A DNA stretch of 18,049 bases from a virus. The number at the start of each line of letters is the position of its first letter. The stretch's first letter is position 1. Positions 2,017 to 10,948 of the stretch are shown here, in pieces. The position numbers and the translations under genes are program-made. Location: UHGV virus genome UHGV-0118719; one strand, 5' to 3'. Under the pieces are notes generated by a model. It made no database searches. It had not been told where the DNA came from and saw only the letters and a list, made by a program, of their open reading frames with translations.

Positions 2017-2052
2017 AATAAAAAACCCGCCTCGGCGGGTTCTTGTTTTTTT
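2017..2052. terminator. bidirectional rho-independent terminator between the Cor-like lipoprotein gene and the tail-fibre gene
   Basis: A-run, 6-bp stem acccgc (2025-2030) / gcgggt (2035-2040) with loop ctcg, then TCTTGTTTTTTT; gives a T-tract on both strands. Confidence 0.65.
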
Positions 2053-2291
2053 CATTTTGTACAGGTCGAGCCGGTAAAGTTGTTTTTACTTACCCAGCGC
2101 CAGTTGAAAGGATATCCAGCTTTGTATTCAATCTGATTTGCTACTCGCCTCACACCATAGACCTGAACAGTCTGTTCTTGTCCACCGACAACTATTACGG
2201 CCTCACATACTGGATTCTGCTTCTCAAGGAGATTGGATGAGCAAGCAGAAAGAAGACTGCAAAAAAGAAACATGACTGATATTTTTTTCAT
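2052..2291 (-). CDS. small outer-membrane-type lipoprotein, Cor-like (candidate superinfection-exclusion lipoprotein)
   Basis: 79-aa ORF with ATG start; signal peptide MKKISVMFLFCSLLSAC with lipobox LSAC; AT-rich; occupies the position next to the tail-fibre gene where N15/phi80/HK022/T1-type phages carry cor. Family assignment is unverified. Confidence 0.65.
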   Translation of the reverse strand: MKKISVMFLFCSLLSACSSNLLEKQNPVCEAVIVVGGQEQTVQVYGVRRVANQIEYKAGYPFNWRWVSKNNFTGSTCTK

Positions 2292-2370
2292 TATTTTGCC
2301 CTGAGGTAATTAGTTTTATAAAAATTAACCTGACGGGGAGATTAATGAAAATAGATTAAACAGATCAATA

Positions 2371-2397
2371 TCAAAAAATCGATCGTTTTAAACGATC
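2371..2397 (-). terminator. GATC-containing dyad (gatcgtttTaaacgatc) followed by a T6 tract on the minus strand; weak terminator or operator
   Basis: 17-bp near-perfect palindrome at 2381-2397 directly after the stop of the 224-aa ORF, with an A-run at 2373-2378 on the plus strand. Confidence 0.35.
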
Positions 2398-2399
2398 AT

Positions 2400-3074
2400 T
2401 TAATCAAATGCAGCCGTATTGATAGCGGTCAAAGAAATTCCTGTGTTGGTTCCTCCACCTGGTGAGCCAGTTCCGGTAGATGTACCACCTGCGTTTATTC
2501 TCGTACTGCCACCATTAAACCTACAAGATGAATAGGCATTTATAGTGTAGATAGTTGGGGGCTGAGTGGAGTTATTAACGATAATCGTCTGACCAAGCTG
2601 AGCCGGAGCGACAGCCCACGACCCGGACAGTGTCTGGTCAATGTTAATCCCACCGCTTGCACCTGGACTCCCCACAGTTTGTAGATCAGAAAGCACCCTT
2701 GATTCGTTCGTCAGAACAAGCTTACCGGAGGCATCCCAGATAGCAAATCCCCACGCAGGAAGTGTTTGAGGAAATATTGAAAATACATATGCTGTAAGCG
2801 TAAAGCTCTGGTTATAGGGATTAACGCCACTAATATAGACATTTCCTCCGATGCGATATGACATGACTGGTGTCGGTTGTGCAGTATCAGTCGTTTTTAT
2901 GAAAACCATTACCGGATAATCGGCAGGCACCGAAAGATATTGTGCCACCTGTTGGGAGCTGCCATTAGCTGAGGAATTAAATGAGTATTTCCCATAGAGG
3001 CAGAAAGGCGTTGATTGCGGAGTGACGAAGGGATTCCCATTATCCATTAAAATCATTGCGCCAAAGTCGGACAC
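2400..3074 (-). CDS. hypothetical protein (224 aa), second of two coupled post-J ORFs; Gly/Ser/Thr-rich C-terminus
   Basis: ORF begins at a GTG (3072-3074) that overlaps the upstream TAG by 1 nt (TAGTG); GGAGAAGG RBS inside the end of the upstream ORF; shares a WDASG motif with the upstream ORF. Confidence 0.6.
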   Translation of the reverse strand: MSDFGAMILMDNGNPFVTPQSTPFCLYGKYSFNSSANGSSQQVAQYLSVPADYPVMVFIKTTDTAQPTPVMSYRIGGNVYISGVNPYNQSFTLTAYVFSIFPQTLPAWGFAIWDASGKLVLTNESRVLSDLQTVGSPGASGGINIDQTLSGSWAVAPAQLGQTIIVNNSTQPPTIYTINAYSSCRFNGGSTRINAGGTSTGTGSPGGGTNTGISLTAINTAAFD

Positions 3075-3376
3075 TATGCCTTCTCCATAAAAACGATCAG
3101 CTCACATTTCGAGGCCGGATAATTACCAAGCCCAGTGTCAGATGCGGACGTCACAGTTATTGAGTTACCTGATGCAACTATTCTTCGCCCTACGCTGTTA
3201 CCTCCTTCATCAAGAGAAACAACAAAACCAACTTTAAAACCTGTGGGCACAGTGAAACTCCAAGAACCTGAGTTCTGACCTGCTGCAAGTGGAATGCGGC
3301 CTACTACCGATACTGGTTTAATGCCATAGTTATTAGGCCTTCCGCTGGCATCCCATGTTTGTATTCCCCATGACAT
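3074..3376 (-). CDS. hypothetical protein (100 aa), first of two coupled post-J ORFs
   Basis: ATG at 3374-3376 overlaps the J stop by 1 nt (TGATG); AGGAG RBS 8 nt upstream, inside the end of J; WDASG motif. Confidence 0.6.
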   Translation of the reverse strand: MSWGIQTWDASGRPNNYGIKPVSVVGRIPLAAGQNSGSWSFTVPTGFKVGFVVSLDEGGNSVGRRIVASGNSITVTSASDTGLGNYPASKCELIVFMEKA

Positions 3377-6300
3377 CAGAATACTCCTGTCAGTTTTCCA
3401 ATCTGTACGCGCAGGACGCCGTTAGCATCCCTTATGCTGTCAGTAACATTCGTTGTCTTTCTTGCGCCCTGCCCGTCACTGCCATAGTTTTCCCAAGTGC
3501 CACCTTTATCCAGTTTCCATCCAGATTGCCCGGCAACGTAATTGTTGGACTGGATAAAGTTACCGATTTTGGCATTGGTGATCGTGCCATCCTGAATAAA
3601 CGCTGAGCTGATAAACACCTGACCGTTTACCACCGCGAACGGCGAATACTGGGTATCACCACTGCCGCTCATCAGCACGAACTGGTTAGCGTTGAAACCA
3701 ACCCGCGTGACTACCGGCTTCCCTGCCTCTGCAAGCACTGCAATAGACATCCCGGCGTTATAAATCACCCCGTTTATTCTCACGCCCGTTTTGAGGGTGT
3801 GGATTGCCGAAGCACCGGAGGCATCTACGACAGCTGTAAGCTTGTCTTCCAGGGAAGCGGTAACATCCTCAATCTGCGCCTGCACCTGCGTCGAAAGTTC
3901 GGCCATTGCATTATCAACTTCAGCAATCGTCGTTTTAACCACCAGAATATCGGCACGCACTTCTCCGTATTGTGCCCACTGGTGCTCAACAGTTCCATGG
4001 TTCGCCAGGGCGTTCTGCAGTATTCCCTCAATGTTGGTATCGATGTCACCAGTCAGGCGTTCTCCGTCTGCAGAGGTTAGGAAATCATCTGCGATATCGC
4101 CCAAATAATCATCGGCGTTATCGTTAGACATCCCCCTGATCCAGTCGGTATACCCGGACTCGTTACCCGTTCTGTCGACCAGCTGCGCGCGGTACCAGAA
4201 TTCCTGCCCTGCTTTAAGGCCGAGCTGGGTGTATTCCGCAGATGGATAAGGCACGTCTGAGAGCAAGAGTGGATCTGAAAAGTCACTGTTGGCAGTGTAC
4301 TGAATTTCCGTTTTTAGCGTATCGCCGGTGTTTGCCGGGAAACCCCAGTTAAGACGAATCCCCCAGTTAATGCCCGTGGCTGTGAATCCTACTGGCTTAG
4401 GCGGATTACCTACTTTGCCGGTCAGTGTCTTCTCTTCTGAATATCCCCATCCTGAGGAAATTTCAGCGGCATTAATTGCGCGCACGCGCACCAGGTAGCG
4501 CCCGGCATAAATCCCCGGGACGTCAAATGACGTGGTGGAGCTGCGAGGCATGTTCACCCAGTTTCCGTCGTTGCGGCGCCACTGCCCCTCATAGGCGATA
4601 GCGTTCTGCGCCTGGTCCCAGCTCACGCGCATCGTTTCGACGCTGATATTCTGCTGAACAACCGAAAACGAACTGATCGTGATGTTGGCTGGCGGGGACT
4701 GATTACCGGGCGGAATTACACTTATTGGCCGCTGGTCGATGATGGCGCCGGTATCGATACGGGCATACTTATCCGGATCGTGAAAAGCACCAGTAATCGA
4801 AAACGTGCCGTCGTTATTATCAGCGACGCTGATAACACGATATTGCTGTGCATAAAGCTCGTCGGATTCGACAATCCATACCGATTCGACTGCCGGTGTT
4901 TCGCTGTATGCCGTGGTCACGGTGACAGCCCGACCGTTTACGCTCTGTATCGTCCTGCTCTGCGATGCGCCAGACGGCAGGTTAACCATAAGACGGCTTC
5001 CGGCAACGGCTGCGGAATCACGATCAAGCGTGATAACGCGACCATTAACCGCGCTGATACGCCCTCCCATCACCTTTCCGGATAACAGATCATCGGCAAC
5101 CGCGATAATATAACCAGGCTGCGGAATGTTTCCGTCCAGCCCGACATCAAACGAAACAACGCGATCCTTGTTATTGGTGAGAATACCCCAGCGCCCCTTT
5201 CGGTTCGCCTCTGACTGCCTGGTGCAGCCGATGGCTGTCATTTCCAGCTGATTGAAGCCGTACCGCGCCACCAGCGCCTGCTCAAATACCGGCTCCATCG
5301 CGTCGGCATAAGCGTTACCCGGGTCTGACCATGAAACCAGCGCTGTGGTGTAGCGGCTTTTCGTGGTGCTGCTCGAATAGGTGAAGCGACCGCCAACAAC
5401 GTTAGCGCGCGTATAGCTGTAATCAACATCGCGCGGCATGTCAGCCAGGGCCACAATCTGATCCCCGCCCCAGTAGGTCATGCCACGGAAGATAGCGGCA
5501 AAATCACGCAGGACTGTGTAGGCGTCGTTCCGGTCCTGAATGTACACGTTGCAGGTATAGCGTGGTTCTGTACCGTTGCCCCCTTTGCCGTCTGGTACCA
5601 TCTGATCACAATACTGAGCAACCTGATAAAGCGTCCATTTATCAATATTCGCAGCGGTCAAACGGTGCCCAAGGCCGAACCGGTCAGAAACAACCAGGTC
5701 GTAAAAAATCCACGCAGGGTTATCCGTCCATGCCCACTTAAACGCACCGGTCCATGTACCGCTATAAGTGCGGGTTTCAGGGTCGTAGGTATCTGGAACG
5801 CGGATAACGCGGCCGCGCGGTTCGCATGAAATTTGAGGAATAGAGCCGTTGAACTGGCTTGAGTCGAATTCGACGTAGAGCAGCGCGGTGTTCGGGTAGC
5901 GCAGTTTGGCGTCAATCACCTCGGTGAAGCTCTGCAGCATCATCGTGTCGCCGATCTTCGCGCTGTTGGCGTCAGAGGTAATCTTACGCAGACGTATTGT
6001 CCATGTGCTGCCAGCCTGCGGTAAATCGATACGGTGGCTGCGCTCATAACCAGACGTCGTTTTGCCGGTCACGCTGGTATTGAGTACCGTCTGCCATGTG
6101 CCGCCGTCAGTCTGCAGGTCAATCGCATAATTGACCGAGTAACCCACCAGATCGCCGTCGTCTTCCTGTTTGAAAAGCGAGGGCCATTTAAGACGCAGGC
6201 GAACTGCTGAAAGCTGCGTATTGGTAAACGTGCGCGTCCAGGCTGTGGCACTTGATACCTCAGTTCCTACGCTGATCTCGTTTTCGGTACCGGGAATACC

Positions 6301-6561
6301 CTGAATATATTTTTGCGCCTGCGTTCCCGCGCGAAACTCCCACGTTACCCCGCTGAAGTTTTGGGAGCCGTCAGCATTCTCCAGCGCTGTTCCGTCCAGG
6401 TAGATATCTTTGCCGGTGAGCTGTCCAGCAAACTCCCCTTCCCCAAGCGCAACGAGGATTTTTGCCTTCGCTACAGATTGCAGATCATCAGGCTGTTCGG
6501 TAGGGGTTCGGGAACTTGAGCTGCCGCCCTTGCGGCCTTTTAACACTTTATCTGTAGCCAT
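3376..6561 (-). CDS. J: tail tip / central tail fibre protein J (host specificity protein)
   Basis: 1061-aa ORF in the lambda J position after I; conserved lambda-J-like blocks in the central region (e.g. YPNTAL, WTLYQVAQYCDQMVPDGKGG..TEPRYTCNVY); N- and C-terminal regions diverge from lambda. Confidence 0.9.
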   Translation of the reverse strand: MATDKVLKGRKGGSSSSRTPTEQPDDLQSVAKAKILVALGEGEFAGQLTGKDIYLDGTALENADGSQNFSGVTWEFRAGTQAQKYIQGIPGTENEISVGTEVSSATAWTRTFTNTQLSAVRLRLKWPSLFKQEDDGDLVGYSVNYAIDLQTDGGTWQTVLNTSVTGKTTSGYERSHRIDLPQAGSTWTIRLRKITSDANSAKIGDTMMLQSFTEVIDAKLRYPNTALLYVEFDSSQFNGSIPQISCEPRGRVIRVPDTYDPETRTYSGTWTGAFKWAWTDNPAWIFYDLVVSDRFGLGHRLTAANIDKWTLYQVAQYCDQMVPDGKGGNGTEPRYTCNVYIQDRNDAYTVLRDFAAIFRGMTYWGGDQIVALADMPRDVDYSYTRANVVGGRFTYSSSTTKSRYTTALVSWSDPGNAYADAMEPVFEQALVARYGFNQLEMTAIGCTRQSEANRKGRWGILTNNKDRVVSFDVGLDGNIPQPGYIIAVADDLLSGKVMGGRISAVNGRVITLDRDSAAVAGSRLMVNLPSGASQSRTIQSVNGRAVTVTTAYSETPAVESVWIVESDELYAQQYRVISVADNNDGTFSITGAFHDPDKYARIDTGAIIDQRPISVIPPGNQSPPANITISSFSVVQQNISVETMRVSWDQAQNAIAYEGQWRRNDGNWVNMPRSSTTSFDVPGIYAGRYLVRVRAINAAEISSGWGYSEEKTLTGKVGNPPKPVGFTATGINWGIRLNWGFPANTGDTLKTEIQYTANSDFSDPLLLSDVPYPSAEYTQLGLKAGQEFWYRAQLVDRTGNESGYTDWIRGMSNDNADDYLGDIADDFLTSADGERLTGDIDTNIEGILQNALANHGTVEHQWAQYGEVRADILVVKTTIAEVDNAMAELSTQVQAQIEDVTASLEDKLTAVVDASGASAIHTLKTGVRINGVIYNAGMSIAVLAEAGKPVVTRVGFNANQFVLMSGSGDTQYSPFAVVNGQVFISSAFIQDGTITNAKIGNFIQSNNYVAGQSGWKLDKGGTWENYGSDGQGARKTTNVTDSIRDANGVLRVQIGKLTGVF

Positions 6562-6726: not shown

Positions 6727-6987
6727 ATGGGTTCGATGTTAGAACTGGAAAAAGAAGTGGCAGAGCTTAAACAAAAGCTGCTTACGCATGAAATTGCAAC
6801 TGGCCTGATTCTATCGGACATTGTGAAATTACTGGACATTGCCCGGCCAGGCGCACTCGATGCTCTGACTAAAAACTATCAGGCAGGGCAAGCAAAAATC
6901 CCAGAATCAGCTGCACGTAATGATCCGCACACAATTGATGCGTTCACGCGCATCCTTAAAGTTTTAGAGGTGGCATCAAAGAAATAA
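6727..6987 (+). CDS. hypothetical small protein (86 aa) on the opposite strand to the tail operon; coiled-coil-like N-terminus
   Basis: AGGAG RBS (6716-6720) 6 nt before the ATG at 6727; AT-rich compared with flanking tail genes; 3' end overlaps the convergent minus-strand ORF by 32 bp. Confidence 0.5.
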   Translation: MGSMLELEKEVAELKQKLLTHEIATGLILSDIVKLLDIARPGALDALTKNYQAGQAKIPESAARNDPHTIDAFTRILKVLEVASKK

Positions 6988-7273
6988 TTAAATCGAGCTT
7001 TTCATTGAATATTTCTTCATGAGTTTTAGCGGCCTCATTCTGGGCCGCTGTTACCGTTCCACCGAAAACCCCTGCATCACCCTGCGAAATCTTTCCCTCC
7101 TTTACTCGCAAACTCCAGCCATTACCGGTGATGGTCGAATGAATAGCGCCACCTGGCCGTAGTGCGTTCTGAATGGCGGAATTGACGATTGCCGGGTTAT
7201 GCAGCTCTGCTATCTCCACCTGCAGGCTCGCGATGGTTGCCTCAAGCATGCTCATGCGCTCTTCTAAAGTCAT
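6956..7273 (-). CDS. hypothetical small protein (105 aa from the ATG at 7271-7273) between I and J
   Basis: AGGAG RBS 7 nt upstream of the ATG at 7273; the longer track ORF (to 7375) would overlap I and lacks an RBS; coiled-coil-like N-terminus. Confidence 0.5.
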   Translation of the reverse strand: MTLEERMSMLEATIASLQVEIAELHNPAIVNSAIQNALRPGGAIHSTITGNGWSLRVKEGKISQGDAGVFGGTVTAAQNEAAKTHEEIFNEKLDLIISLMPPLKL

Positions 7274-7310
7274 AGTTTTCTCCTGCCTATCAGCTAATAA
7301 GTTAATTAAT

Positions 7311-7901
7311 TTACTGTTGATCTTCGACATAAATTCCGGCAGAAATAATCGCTCCGCCGATTCGACGCTTACCATAAAGCAGAGGCACCGGGTACCCCTG
7401 TGCCGCGGTGTTTGTTACACCACCGAACGCGTATGAGGCGCGGTTATCTGAACTCTGTTTGCTGGCCAGCCCCGCTGGTTGAGGGGAAAGCATCTGAACA
7501 ACCCCGCCAATCATCATTGCGGCACCGAATTTGTATAAGAATGGTGATGCCGCAGCCCAGGGTGTGAAATTAAGCACCGCCCCAACGGCAACCAGAACTG
7601 CACCAAGTATTGTCTGGAGTAATCCGGCCTTTTTGCTCCCGATAATCACCGGGACAATCCTGACCACTTCACCAGTTACCGGAAAACCTAGGTCATCAAC
7701 TCCTATGTTTTTCTTTCCTTTAAAAATGGCAAAGGTTAGTCCGCGGCGCTTGCTGTTTACCATATAACTTTCAAACCCGGTGATTGTTTTTGCGAGTGCT
7801 ACACCTGCTTCAGAAACTTTACTGATAAGTCGCCAATGAGTTTTACCAAATATTTTACCGGGTTCGCCGCCGAGCTCAATTCGAGTCATTGCTTCAGACA
7901 T
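7311..7901 (-). CDS. I: tail assembly protein I
   Basis: 196-aa ORF; AAGAGG RBS 5 nt upstream; C-terminal half resembles lambda gpI (Gly/Ala-rich hydrophobic segment, then VLPVLYG-like block, here YPVPLLYGKRRIG). Confidence 0.85.
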   Translation of the reverse strand: MSEAMTRIELGGEPGKIFGKTHWRLISKVSEAGVALAKTITGFESYMVNSKRRGLTFAIFKGKKNIGVDDLGFPVTGEVVRIVPVIIGSKKAGLLQTILGAVLVAVGAVLNFTPWAAASPFLYKFGAAMMIGGVVQMLSPQPAGLASKQSSDNRASYAFGGVTNTAAQGYPVPLLYGKRRIGGAIISAGIYVEDQQ

Positions 7902-7959: not shown

Positions 7960-8373
7960 TCAAAATGCTGTAGGGTAGATACCAAAATCACCGTTGGTTC
8001 CGTAACCAACTCTAAACATCAAAACCCCAGTATCTGTCACCTTACCCGACTGTTCGCTCATGCCTCCGCCACACATACCTTTGGGCCAAGCGCTAAAGAT
8101 ATGATCTCCAATTTTGGGATAGACCGTTACCTTTTGAGCTGTATCTAAGTCTGCGACCTCCTTGCCATCAACATAAACTCGGGTCATGCAGGCGCTGCCC
8201 ATAAAACCAGAGTCTCGTTTGATTATTACCTTGCCAGTCCCTTCTTTTTTTACTAGCAGTGTATTGCTGATAACCTGTTTTGCAGGAACATCCTGTGCTT
8301 GTTCATTTGTCACCGGCTTAGTTGCACAACCGGCAACCATTAAGATGGAGGTAAAAACTAAAATTCTTTTCAT
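7960..8373 (-). CDS. lipoprotein of unknown function (137 aa), accessory gene between K and I
   Basis: ATG at 8371-8373 preceded by AAAGGGGA; signal peptide MKRILVFTSILMVAGC with lipobox VAGC; the longer track ORF start at 8493 was rejected. Confidence 0.65.
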   Translation of the reverse strand: MKRILVFTSILMVAGCATKPVTNEQAQDVPAKQVISNTLLVKKEGTGKVIIKRDSGFMGSACMTRVYVDGKEVADLDTAQKVTVYPKIGDHIFSAWPKGMCGGGMSEQSGKVTDTGVLMFRVGYGTNGDFGIYPTAF

Positions 8374-8461
8374 ATCCCTATCCCCTTTGGTCAATTTTGC
8401 CAAAAGAGTAGCAGGGATCGAGCGGTAGCAAAACCGAATGTTATCTTGGTTCACGCGCCCT

Positions 8462-8971
8462 TTAAATACCGGGGAGATACATCTGTACTTCATCAGCTAC
8501 ACGCTCCCGTGCTGTGTGTAGAAGCCGCTTGCGGCCACCAACACCCCACTTGGCCATCTGGCTGGCGCACTGGCTGATCGCTTTGGTTTCGGTGTTAATC
8601 ACATGGTCGATTTTATTCAAGCGAGACATGGCATCGAACCCGCGACGCATTAGCATTTGAAATGTCTCATAGACTTTGATTTCAAAAAGCGGATTGAGCC
8701 AGGCTGCATAGCGTATAGCGATAAGTTCAAGCCCCCAGGAGCCCTGAAATGGTCCCCCCTTAATTGTCATAACCGATGCGATTTTCTTCGCATCGCTCAA
8801 GGCTTGAACAAATCGCCTTACTTGCTTGGTTTTGAGAAACTCACCTGGTCGCTGTGATTCAGTGGCTTTGCCTTCAGCCACCGCTGCGGCGTGGAGATCA
8901 TTAAGATTATAACGTCCTTCGTTATCGACACGAACTGATACGCCGTTTACAGATACGGTTGGATATTGCAT
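8462..8971 (-). CDS. KilA-N domain protein (169 aa)
   Basis: N-terminal ~110 aa fit the KilA-N/APSES-type pattern (V..VR.D.EG...L.DL......, GG.FQGSWG.ELIAIRYAAWLNP.FEIKVYE); ATG at 8969-8971 with AAGG RBS; inserted where lambda has no gene. Confidence 0.65.
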   Translation of the reverse strand: MQYPTVSVNGVSVRVDNEGRYNLNDLHAAAVAEGKATESQRPGEFLKTKQVRRFVQALSDAKKIASVMTIKGGPFQGSWGLELIAIRYAAWLNPLFEIKVYETFQMLMRRGFDAMSRLNKIDHVINTETKAISQCASQMAKWGVGGRKRLLHTARERVADEVQMYLPGI

Positions 8972-9136: not shown

Positions 9137-9847
9137 CTATAGAAGCGTTTTATATCTGACGATCTTCATCGTCCTTTCCTGCCAGTAGCCACCATACGGC
9201 ACGCGCTGGCTCAGATGTCCGTACAGGTGGTGCAGCAGCATATTTCCCTCCAGCAGAATTCCCGCGTGGTTCCACTTATCAGCCTGGACCTGCATGATCA
9301 CCATATCGCCGGGTTTCGGTGGCCCGTCGAATTCCCGGAAACCGCACTCATACCAGCAATCCTGATAGAAGTTGTCCGGATATTCGTTTTCCCACCAGGG
9401 ATAATCAACCCGGTAATCGTGGAGTTCGATACCATGCGTTTGCCGAAAATAGCTCATTACCAGCCCCCAGCAGTCGAAGTGTCCAAGCACAAACGGACGC
9501 TCCAGCAGCGGCAGTTCTCCGCGCGGCTGGATGGTGCGTAAATCCCCCTCCGGCCAGCTCACAATATGCCAGGGTAAAAGCGTTGCGTCGCATTGCGCTT
9601 TATCCAGTTCGCTCGGTTGCGTTGTGGCGTCAGGGTGACTGTGAACGATGGCGATCACCGTACCCCAGTCCTCAGCAGCGGCATAGCCTTCTGGCGACAG
9701 GTGAAAATGTTCTGTCGGCTCGGTAGCGAGGTTACTACATGGAAAATATTTCTCTACCCGGCTCTTTTGCGCCACCACGCCGCAACACTCACGAGGATAT
9801 TCAGCTGCAGCATGCGCCATAATCGCATCGATGGTTTTCTGACGCAT
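9137..9847 (-). CDS. K: tail assembly protein K (N-terminal MPN/JAMM-like, C-terminal NlpC/P60-like)
   Basis: 236-aa ORF that matches my recollection of lambda gpK over essentially its whole length (MRQ.TIDAIMAHAAAEYPRE.CGVV..., HSHPD motif, HFDCWGLV). Confidence 0.95.
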   Translation of the reverse strand: MRQKTIDAIMAHAAAEYPRECCGVVAQKSRVEKYFPCSNLATEPTEHFHLSPEGYAAAEDWGTVIAIVHSHPDATTQPSELDKAQCDATLLPWHIVSWPEGDLRTIQPRGELPLLERPFVLGHFDCWGLVMSYFRQTHGIELHDYRVDYPWWENEYPDNFYQDCWYECGFREFDGPPKPGDMVIMQVQADKWNHAGILLEGNMLLHHLYGHLSQRVPYGGYWQERTMKIVRYKTLL

Positions 9848-9848
9848 A

Positions 9849-10604
9849 TCAGCTCCTGATCAACGACGTTCCAACGAATCCGCCATGCGATAACTCATTA
9901 CCTTTGCCAAAACGTAGCTCACATGCTGCCAACGTACCGTTGCATTCATCCAGCGACGGATCGCTTACCGGGTTGTTGTTTTTGTCGAAATAGCGCGTAC
10001 CAGCATAGTCGCAGCCGTCGCCGGTTCGGTACTTGTTCCGGATGCACCATGTGCACAGAGAATGAAGCTGGCGGGTAGGTATCATCAGCCCCTGCAGATC
10101 CATAGGGCTGGATAGTGTGAACTCAACAACTTCATTGGTTTCACTGCTCTTTGCATCGATGTAGAAAACCTTCAGCTTCTCCTGGGTCGGATCGGCTGTC
10201 GGATTGCCTCCGGTGAAGTTTCTCGCATCGAGATACTTACCAATGGTGTCATGTATCGTCACCTTCGCCTGCAGCATATCGTCGTAAGCCAGGCAAAGCG
10301 CGGTGATCGAACTGTCGAGGTTAGCAACCGAAAGTTTTGGCTGGGCACTACTTCCCGAGGTTGAAGCCTCGATCCCCTCAATCTGACACGGCCAGGCTTT
10401 ATACTCCTCCCCCTGCCACCAGATGGACTTCGCCGGAAGTTTATTCTCATCCCCGCCTGCAGCCTCAATCTCTTCCGGGGTATGCGCGATATTATGTGTG
10501 TGGAAGCGGAGTACATCTGACATACCGAACGCTGTGCCATCGACAGAAAAAAGCCGGACTTCATTGCCCGGCTCGAGTTTTTGATAATCAGCATTAAGAC
10601 TCAT
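9849..10604 (-). CDS. L: minor tail protein L
   Basis: 251-aa ORF in the lambda L position; conserved Cys-containing C-terminal region (CTWC, GCDY, DEC); ATGA start/stop overlap with M. Confidence 0.9.
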   Translation of the reverse strand: MSLNADYQKLEPGNEVRLFSVDGTAFGMSDVLRFHTHNIAHTPEEIEAAGGDENKLPAKSIWWQGEEYKAWPCQIEGIEASTSGSSAQPKLSVANLDSSITALCLAYDDMLQAKVTIHDTIGKYLDARNFTGGNPTADPTQEKLKVFYIDAKSSETNEVVEFTLSSPMDLQGLMIPTRQLHSLCTWCIRNKYRTGDGCDYAGTRYFDKNNNPVSDPSLDECNGTLAACELRFGKGNELSHGGFVGTSLIRS

Positions 10605-10948
10605 GGTGCAAATGCCTGTTCAAACGTTGCGGTTACGGTTATCACTTTTACGTTTTTAACCACCTTTTTGAGCGTGTCAGCCTCGACACGCCACAGCGCG
10701 GTATCGCCGAAAGGCGGTGTGAAAATAAACGACTTCACTTTATGCCGCCGAAGGAAAGCGTGAATTTCATTCGCTGTAGTCGGATCCCCTGAAAAGGAAT
10801 ATTCATAGGTACGAATCTCATCATTCAGGCCGGAGCCGCTCACCTGTGCGTACCCGTCGCCGAACTGGACCTTCCTGACTGTGTCTTTGCTTCCCTCGGT
10901 GGGCTGGCTGGAAACCTTAATGCCCCAGGGGAATGTTTCTATCGTCAT
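10601..10948 (-). CDS. M: minor tail protein M
   Basis: 115-aa ORF directly after H; lambda-M-like (VRKV.FGDGY.Q); coupled to L. Confidence 0.9.
   Translation of the reverse strand: MTIETFPWGIKVSSQPTEGSKDTVRKVQFGDGYAQVSGSGLNDEIRTYEYSFSGDPTTANEIHAFLRRHKVKSFIFTPPFGDTALWRVEADTLKKVVKNVKVITVTATFEQAFAP

Follow-up and report, generated by a model that had tools for sequence, protein, structure and literature searches.

Positions 2,017 to 2,399 of the window, by which we mean the whole analysed stretch of 18,049 nucleotides of viral DNA (UHGV virus genome UHGV-0118719), enclose a small lipoprotein gene, cor, with the hairpins and the spacer that flank it. All genes in this part of the window lie on the minus strand, and in the direction of transcription the order is a J-like tail tip protein of 1061 aa (3376-6561), a gp22-like protein of 100 aa (3074-3376; PHROG 557, E 3.2e-34), a gp23-like protein of 224 aa (2400-3074; PHROG 425, E 9.5e-78), a weak hairpin, cor (2052-2291), a GC-rich hairpin with a U-run (2021-2044) and a side tail-fibre protein of 400 aa (793-1995) with a C-terminal Peptidase_S74 chaperone domain (Pfam PF13884, PHROG 1980). 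The gp22-like and gp23-like genes are the first and second gene of a FhuA-associated cassette. The ATG of the fibre gene at 1995 is found 56 nt past the stop codon of cor, and the lipoprotein gene is thus directly upstream of the tail-fibre gene, as an earlier note on this DNA, made from its letters and open reading frames, had stated.

The lipoprotein and its family

The open reading frame at 2052-2291 (minus strand) starts with ATG, includes its stop codon within these coordinates and encodes a 79-aa precursor that begins MKKISVMFLFCSLLSACSSNLLEKQ and reads in full MKKISVMFLFCSLLSACSSNLLEKQNPVCEAVIVVGGQEQTVQVYGVRRVANQIEYKAGYPFNWRWVSKNNFTGSTCTK. The signal peptide consists of a basic n-region (MKK), a hydrophobic core and the lipobox L14-S15-A16-C17 (2241-2252), and the translation thus bears out the 79-aa lipoprotein with lipobox LSAC of the earlier note. 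Cys17 is invariant in two alignments of Cor homologues (n=13 and n=78), and a further cysteine within the hydrophobic core, Cys11, is not conserved among the aligned homologues. Upon maturation, Cys17 is predicted to become the lipidated N-terminal residue. According to the established Lol sorting rule the residue at position +2 decides on localization, and Ser rather than Asp at this position predicts that the lipoprotein would be sorted to the outer membrane.

The assignment of this reading frame to the Cor family is near certain. The protein matches the equivalog-level NCBIfam model NF047972, "phage exclusion lipoprotein Cor", over the full length, residues 1-79 aligning to profile positions 1-78, with a score of 131.2 bits (E 1e-38; curated cut-off 31). 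A second match, with E 1.7e-24, is to PHROG 1119, "Cor superinfection exclusion protein". Both matches support the homology to Cor that the earlier note had proposed with reservation. Moreover, a tblastn search found 165 matching phage records, the majority of them labelled Cor or superinfection exclusion, and a profile search of a large protein collection yielded 346 protein clusters across the Enterobacterales, many named Cor, which span Enterobacter, Citrobacter, Salmonella, Klebsiella, Erwinia, Kluyvera and other genera. Pfam has no family for the Cor, gp22-like or gp23-like proteins of the window, the PADLOC defence-system models match none of the three, and a sequence search of the PDB with Cor returned nothing meaningful.

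Direct alignment with the Cor proteins of phi80, N15 and T1, a comparison that the earlier note had named as a check, was positive, with identities of 53%, 53% and 35%, and the values for HK225, HK022 and ES18 are 53%, 51% and 56%. Cys17, Cys29, Cys77 and the stretch A58-G-Y-P-F62 are invariant among the window, phi80, N15, HK022, HK225, ES18 and T1, a set in which the proteins of phi80, N15 and HK022 have been studied by experiment. Like the protein of the window, the Cor proteins of phi80, N15, HK022/mEp167 and ES18 have 77-80 aa, the lipobox cysteine, the cysteine pair and the motif AGYPF(N/S)W. The window protein differs by one extra residue past the lipobox, SSNLLEKQ in place of the G-xLEKQ of the phi80/N15/HK022/ES18-type proteins. 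The best matches in the protein collection, none of them identical, are annotated Cor proteins of Enterobacter asburiae (95% and 94% identity), and the closest members of the clade (81-95%) are mostly annotated as Enterobacter, one each being labelled Salmonella and E. coli. With a family already curated, a canonical position and a 95% identical protein publicly named Cor, the gene represents known biology, and beyond its correct annotation as a canonical curated gene in its canonical place it adds little.

The canonical position becomes evident from the annotated phage records. N15 (genes 21 to 25), phi80 (gp21 to gp25) and HK225 have, exactly as the window, the order J, gp22, gp23, cor, terminator, fibre, and cor likewise follows the J, gp22 and gp23 homologues in the records of HK022, ES18 and T1; in phi80, N15, HK022 and ES18 its slot lies, as in the window, past J-gp22-gp23 and ahead of a terminator and a side fibre. 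The statement of the earlier note that cor is found at this site in N15/phi80/HK022/T1-type phages therefore agrees with the records. A sample of 12 loci from species-representative genomes (Citrobacter, Siccibacter, Dryocola, Trabulsiella, Erwinia, Kluyvera, Enterobacter and others) showed the order J C-terminus homologue, gp22, gp23, cor in all 11 loci with enough upstream sequence, and a fibre N-terminus after cor in 8 of the 12. The gp22 and gp23 proteins as constant companions of cor could be part of receptor binding or of exclusion. [quoted passage not shown]

The C-terminal 211 residues of J (3376-4011; residues 851-1061, with the Pfam Phage_Tail_Tip match at residues 904-1040) are 94% identical to N15 gp21, 92% to HK225, 55% to phi80, 49% each to ES18 and T1, and 98% to an Enterobacter prophage (locus L005), whereas lambda J, as represented in the PDB, aligns with the J of the window only to residue 729. 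The J C-terminus is therefore of the N15 type and not of the lambda type, which confirms another observation of the earlier note. The gp22-like protein is 77% identical to its counterpart in N15, 85% in HK225, 84% in phi80, 90% in the L005 prophage and 55% in T1, the gp23-like protein 66%, 90%, 85%, 93% and 54%, respectively, and the N-terminal ~140 residues of the fibre are 87% identical to N15 gp25. T1 and the Drexlerviridae/Dhillonvirus group thus have the Cor family and the three-gene cassette in common with the window, but T1 is a lytic phage and carries cor on the opposite strand. More precisely, in ES18 (L004, 5932-6174) and T1 (L023, 9624-9851) cor runs against the tail genes on either side, and in the window, N15, phi80, HK225 and HK022 it is co-oriented with its neighbours, as would fit a unit that moves independently.

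The AT-rich island and the transcription of cor

The GC content of 2017-2399 is 37.9% as compared to 52.3% for the whole window, and no other 383-nt stretch of the window is lower; only 0.66% of all 383-nt windows are as GC-poor, every one of them overlapping the same locus. Within the island the cor reading frame has 41.7% GC and the spacer 2292-2399 has 27.8%. The AT-rich segment that the earlier note had seen around the lipoprotein gene is thus real. Its extent had been drawn too narrowly, as the GC content at third codon positions is 36-40% in the gp22-like and gp23-like genes versus 59% in J, and the low-GC module extends beyond the island to take in both genes.

The earlier note had also placed a terminator on each side of the gene, which is well supported downstream and poorly upstream. 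On the downstream side, the pattern scan and folding identified an intrinsic terminator on the minus strand (2044-2021) that parts cor from the fibre gene. It consists of a 10-bp GC-rich stem followed by a U-run with a folding energy of -14.9 kcal/mol (z -4.1), none of 200 shuffled sequences folds equally well, and the plus strand of 2021-2044 also scores as a terminator. In addition, the records of HK225, N15, phi80 and ES18 have an annotated terminator at the equivalent position. On the upstream side, scan and folding revealed an AT-rich hairpin directly 3' of the gp23-like stop codon (2398-2380, minus strand) with a 7-bp stem and six Ts, which meets a loose terminator pattern and folds with -7.0 kcal/mol (z -2.0), a value equalled by 10 of 200 shuffles. 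The hairpin is kept in HK225 and N15, there without the T-run, and the T1 record has an annotated terminator at the equivalent position. In the window the hairpin is a possible weak terminator. Rfam returned for 1900-2500 only sub-threshold matches, which were driven by the terminator hairpin.

The spacer between hairpin and cor (2292-2379, minus strand, 26% GC) would be the presumed promoter region, and AGGG at 2302-2299, 7 nt before the ATG, provides a ribosome-binding site. A scan of 1800-2700 found no consensus promoter, and a relaxed scan upstream of cor gave only weak candidates without a conserved -35/-10 pair, the best of which is TTGATA (2374-2369) and TATTTT (2353-2348), separated by 15 nt and located 56 nt before the ATG; neither scan thus yielded a convincing sigma-70 promoter. 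The segment immediately upstream of cor also contains three GATC sites within ~40 nt (2362-2398, minus strand), two of which form the arms of the hairpin. The sites are shared by HK225 and the Enterobacter prophage L005. A regulation of cor through Dam methylation of these sites was considered and dropped, because N15 and HK022 have one GATC site and ES18 has none.

Morons are independent transcription units inserted in phage late operons, and an AT-rich, separately terminated layout is classical for them. At cor, a factor-independent terminator is present downstream and the base composition differs from that of neighbouring genes, and the cor of HK022 is annotated as a moron gene product. The gene may therefore be viewed as a moron-type unit, small, AT-rich and with a terminator of its own, at the end of a module composed of the J C-terminus, gp22, gp23 and cor. 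Since the strong terminator stands between cor and the fibre gene, which must be made late, late transcription would have to read through this terminator, and its main effect would then be to limit the transcript of cor itself in the lysogen.

Two further gene pairs were noticed among the tail genes. Between the K-like (9137-9847) and the I-like (7311-7901) tail genes there are two non-tail genes (7960-8971, minus strand), of which one, a reading frame of 177 aa, has PHROG 890, "lipoprotein", as its match (E 5e-51) and the second encodes a 169-aa KilA-N/PHROG 129 regulator-like protein; this pair, which includes another lipoprotein, is a possible second moron. The region 6727-7375 between the I-like gene and J contains an 86-aa reading frame on the plus strand (PHROG 23209) and a 139-aa reading frame on the minus strand (PHROG 22477), and HK022 carries annotated morons in the equivalent slot.

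Predicted fold, probable exclusion through FhuA and alternative explanations

How might such a small lipoprotein exclude phages? The AlphaFold2 model of Cor has a pLDDT of 85 and suggests a small β-sheet fold for the mature domain of about 62 residues, the termini of which are probably tied together by a disulphide between Cys29 and Cys77. In BFVD a superinfection exclusion protein of a Dhillonvirus ranks first against the model (E 1.7e-6, TMq 0.84), and the next matches are small proteins from phages of the T5-like and other types, of which several carry a lipoprotein annotation. A Foldseek search of the PDB gave no match at E ≤ 0.001 and listed the T5 lipoprotein Llp 14th by E-value, yet Llp had the best full-length TM-scores in this search (0.58 and 0.59), and the predicted fold of Cor matches that of Llp. 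Identity in the structural alignment is 16%, and phmmer against the PDB sequences retrieved no Llp chain even at E ≤ 10. Llp (PDB 8a60 chain B and 7qjf) is a small lipoprotein with about 62 residues in the mature form, as is Cor, is located in the outer membrane, as predicted for Cor, is likewise encoded beside receptor-binding genes and has a terminal disulphide, Cys11-Cys58, equivalent in position to the pair Cys13 and Cys61 of mature Cor. T5, in contrast, is lytic and uses pb5, whereas the phage of the window has the J/gp22/gp23 module, and binding to FhuA has been solved structurally for Llp and only inferred for Cor.

The structures of Llp indicate how FhuA can be blocked from within. Llp is periplasmic and binds the plug of FhuA in a non-native state, and upon its binding the loops EL7 and EL8 fold inward across the phage binding site (PMC9586334). 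The Cys11-Cys58 disulphide is common to the Cor family, and the authors of that study suggested that Cor proteins likely act alike (PMC9586334). For the Cor of phage KanT1, AlphaFold3 predicts a complex with FhuA, which was modelled without its first ~70 residues (PMC13164509). The Cor proteins of HK022, N15 and phi80 are reported to inactivate FhuA, lower ferrichrome uptake and guard against colicin M (PMC3594210, citing Uc-Mass 2004). How Cor itself acts at the molecular level is described as not yet settled (bioRxiv 10.64898/2026.03.26.714494), and Llp-like periplasmic jamming of FhuA is, by analogy, the best available model. Earlier work, as reviewed in PMC13164509, found the gp22-gp23-cor cassette in the FhuA-dependent phages T1, HK022, N15, ES18 and phi80, and relatives that do not use FhuA without it; the association was confirmed in the BASEL collection (PMC13164509). 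Since the cassette tracks FhuA use, J residues 851-1061 are 94% N15-like and lambda J aligns only to residue 729, it is probable that the phage of the window uses FhuA. Knowledge of FhuA use, if the prediction is true, helps to predict host range and cross-resistance of phages.

Taken together, the best explanation, to which we assign a probability of roughly 0.85, is that the locus is a cor gene whose lipoprotein jams FhuA and so excludes FhuA-dependent phages. The 79-aa precursor would be produced in the lysogen, exported, lipidated at Cys17 and cleaved. In analogy to Llp, the mature protein would bind the periplasmic face and the plug of the TonB-dependent transporter FhuA and lock it in a state of no use to the receptor-binding proteins of phages. 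The carrier cell would then resist further FhuA-dependent phages, including the progeny of the phage that it carries, at the price of ferrichrome uptake. Exclusion of FhuA-dependent phages by the Cor of the window is therefore likely by analogy with its characterized relatives, and lysogens are expected to be resistant to phages like T1, T5, phi80 and N15, and probably also to colicin M and albomycin, the cost being ferrichrome uptake. The site of the promoter, the molecular action on FhuA and the role of gp22 and gp23 are questions general to the Cor family.

Which other explanations could account for the locus? That short reading frames are common and that Pfam offers no match might be taken to indicate a chance reading frame or an unrelated small lipoprotein in an AT-rich spacer, a proposal that is refuted by the full-length HMM matches (E 1e-38 and E 1.7e-24), by hundreds of homologues with invariant motifs and by the conserved synteny. 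A further explanation accepts an intact cor gene and proposes that it is a silent passenger, unexpressed in the prophage, hence without a part in exclusion by lysogens, and acting, if at all, only during lytic growth as in T1. The lytic phage T1 also carries cor, a consensus promoter was not found in the spacer, and the weakness of the upstream hairpin makes read-through from the late operon plausible. Opposed to this are the Cor-dependent conversion observed in phi80, N15 and HK022 lysogens (PMC3594210), the combination of AT-rich spacer and strong downstream terminator, which is the layout of an independent transcription unit, and the persistence of an identical intact Cor in four Enterobacter prophages that have shed tail genes, a pattern suggesting that it is selected for in the host. 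A silent cor is accordingly very improbable.

More weight, though still little, may be given to the possibility that the protein has the Cor fold and a different target, either another TonB-dependent transporter such as BtuB or solely the FhuA of its own host genus, in which case the classical FhuA coliphages would not be excluded. Phages that use BtuB carry Cor-like proteins (PMC13164509), and consequently the target cannot be read from the fold alone. Moreover, Cor is the most diverged protein of the block, with 51-56% identity to the characterized E. coli phage proteins including those of phi80, N15 and HK225, as compared to 84-94% to at least one of these three for gp22, gp23 and the J C-terminus, which makes an altered specificity conceivable; at the DNA level, identity is 38-60% across 2150-2360, and the close relatives of the protein (81-95%) are mostly from Enterobacter. 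However, the score for the equivalog-level model NF047972 is four times its cut-off, the adjoining J C-terminus belongs, together with gp22 and gp23, to the FhuA-linked N15/phi80 type, and the Cor-like proteins of BtuB-using phages occur without the full gp22/gp23 cassette (PMC13164509). Exclusion through FhuA, including that used by the classical coliphages, thus remains the preferred explanation, and a different target is improbable.

Enterobacter relatives and the mosaic structure of the block

The closest relatives of the locus are prophages of Enterobacter asburiae, the Cor proteins of which (P0001 and P0002) are 94-95% identical to that of the window with four amino-acid differences. The DNA of such a prophage is 95.8% identical over the cor cassette and 83-90% across the rest of the block, and the neighbours are as in the window, a 1061-aa J, proteins of 100 aa and 224 aa and a fibre with an S74 domain. 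Compared to HK225, N15 and phi80, DNA identity is ~70-80% in gp23 and drops to 38-60% across 2150-2360, where the Enterobacter prophage retains 90-100%; relative to these three phages, no part of the block has diverged as far as cor with its upstream spacer. Since Cor is only ~52% identical to the characterized coliphage proteins, versus 84-94% for the adjacent receptor-recognition genes, it could be imagined that the mostly-Enterobacter clade has diverged in specificity, either towards the plug of FhuA as found in the Enterobacter cloacae complex or towards a different transporter. We regard this as unlikely; if true, an intact cor in decayed Enterobacter prophages would mark a host-domesticated phage-resistance gene.

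Five Enterobacter chromosomal contexts (L005-L009, cor at 8001-8240 in each) represent one site adjoining umuDC and encode an identical 79-aa Cor that is 95% identical to that of the window. Four of the five are prophages stripped of most tail or head genes, with cor intact in all four; gp22 and gp23 are kept in three of these, and gp23 is truncated in the fourth. The persistence of an intact cor in decaying prophages looks like retention of an exclusion gene.

In its left part the window is closest at the DNA level to Enterobacter asburiae prophages and to plasmid-like records of 40-50 kb, and in its head and tail module the identity to mEp237, HK225 and N15, all of them E. coli phages, is 93%. 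A megablast search of 1900-2500 against 5,426 complete E. coli genomes found no match, and no locus with more than 70% identity was found among the GTDB species representatives. Judged from these sequence relationships, the host is probably Enterobacter or a close relative.

One part of J, ~3614-3918 (~300 nt), is 100% identical to the E. coli phage HK225, the block being otherwise 65-95% identical, indicating that the block is a recombinational mosaic. This identity points to recombination, not long ago, of phages recorded from E. coli with phages recorded from Enterobacter.

Some similarities extend past the fibre gene. A DinI-family gene on the plus strand (432-698; Pfam PF06183, E 8e-23) lies just past the tail fibre, as in phi80 and HK225. 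In the Enterobacter prophage L005 the region past the fibre gene (9487-10861) contains a second, oppositely oriented fibre C-terminus of the Peptidase_S74 type and a DNA invertase of the resolvase type, and an invertase is also found nearby in phi80 (L022, 9952 onward) and HK225. This arrangement suggests that the Enterobacter relatives have an invertible fibre-tip switch downstream of the fibre.
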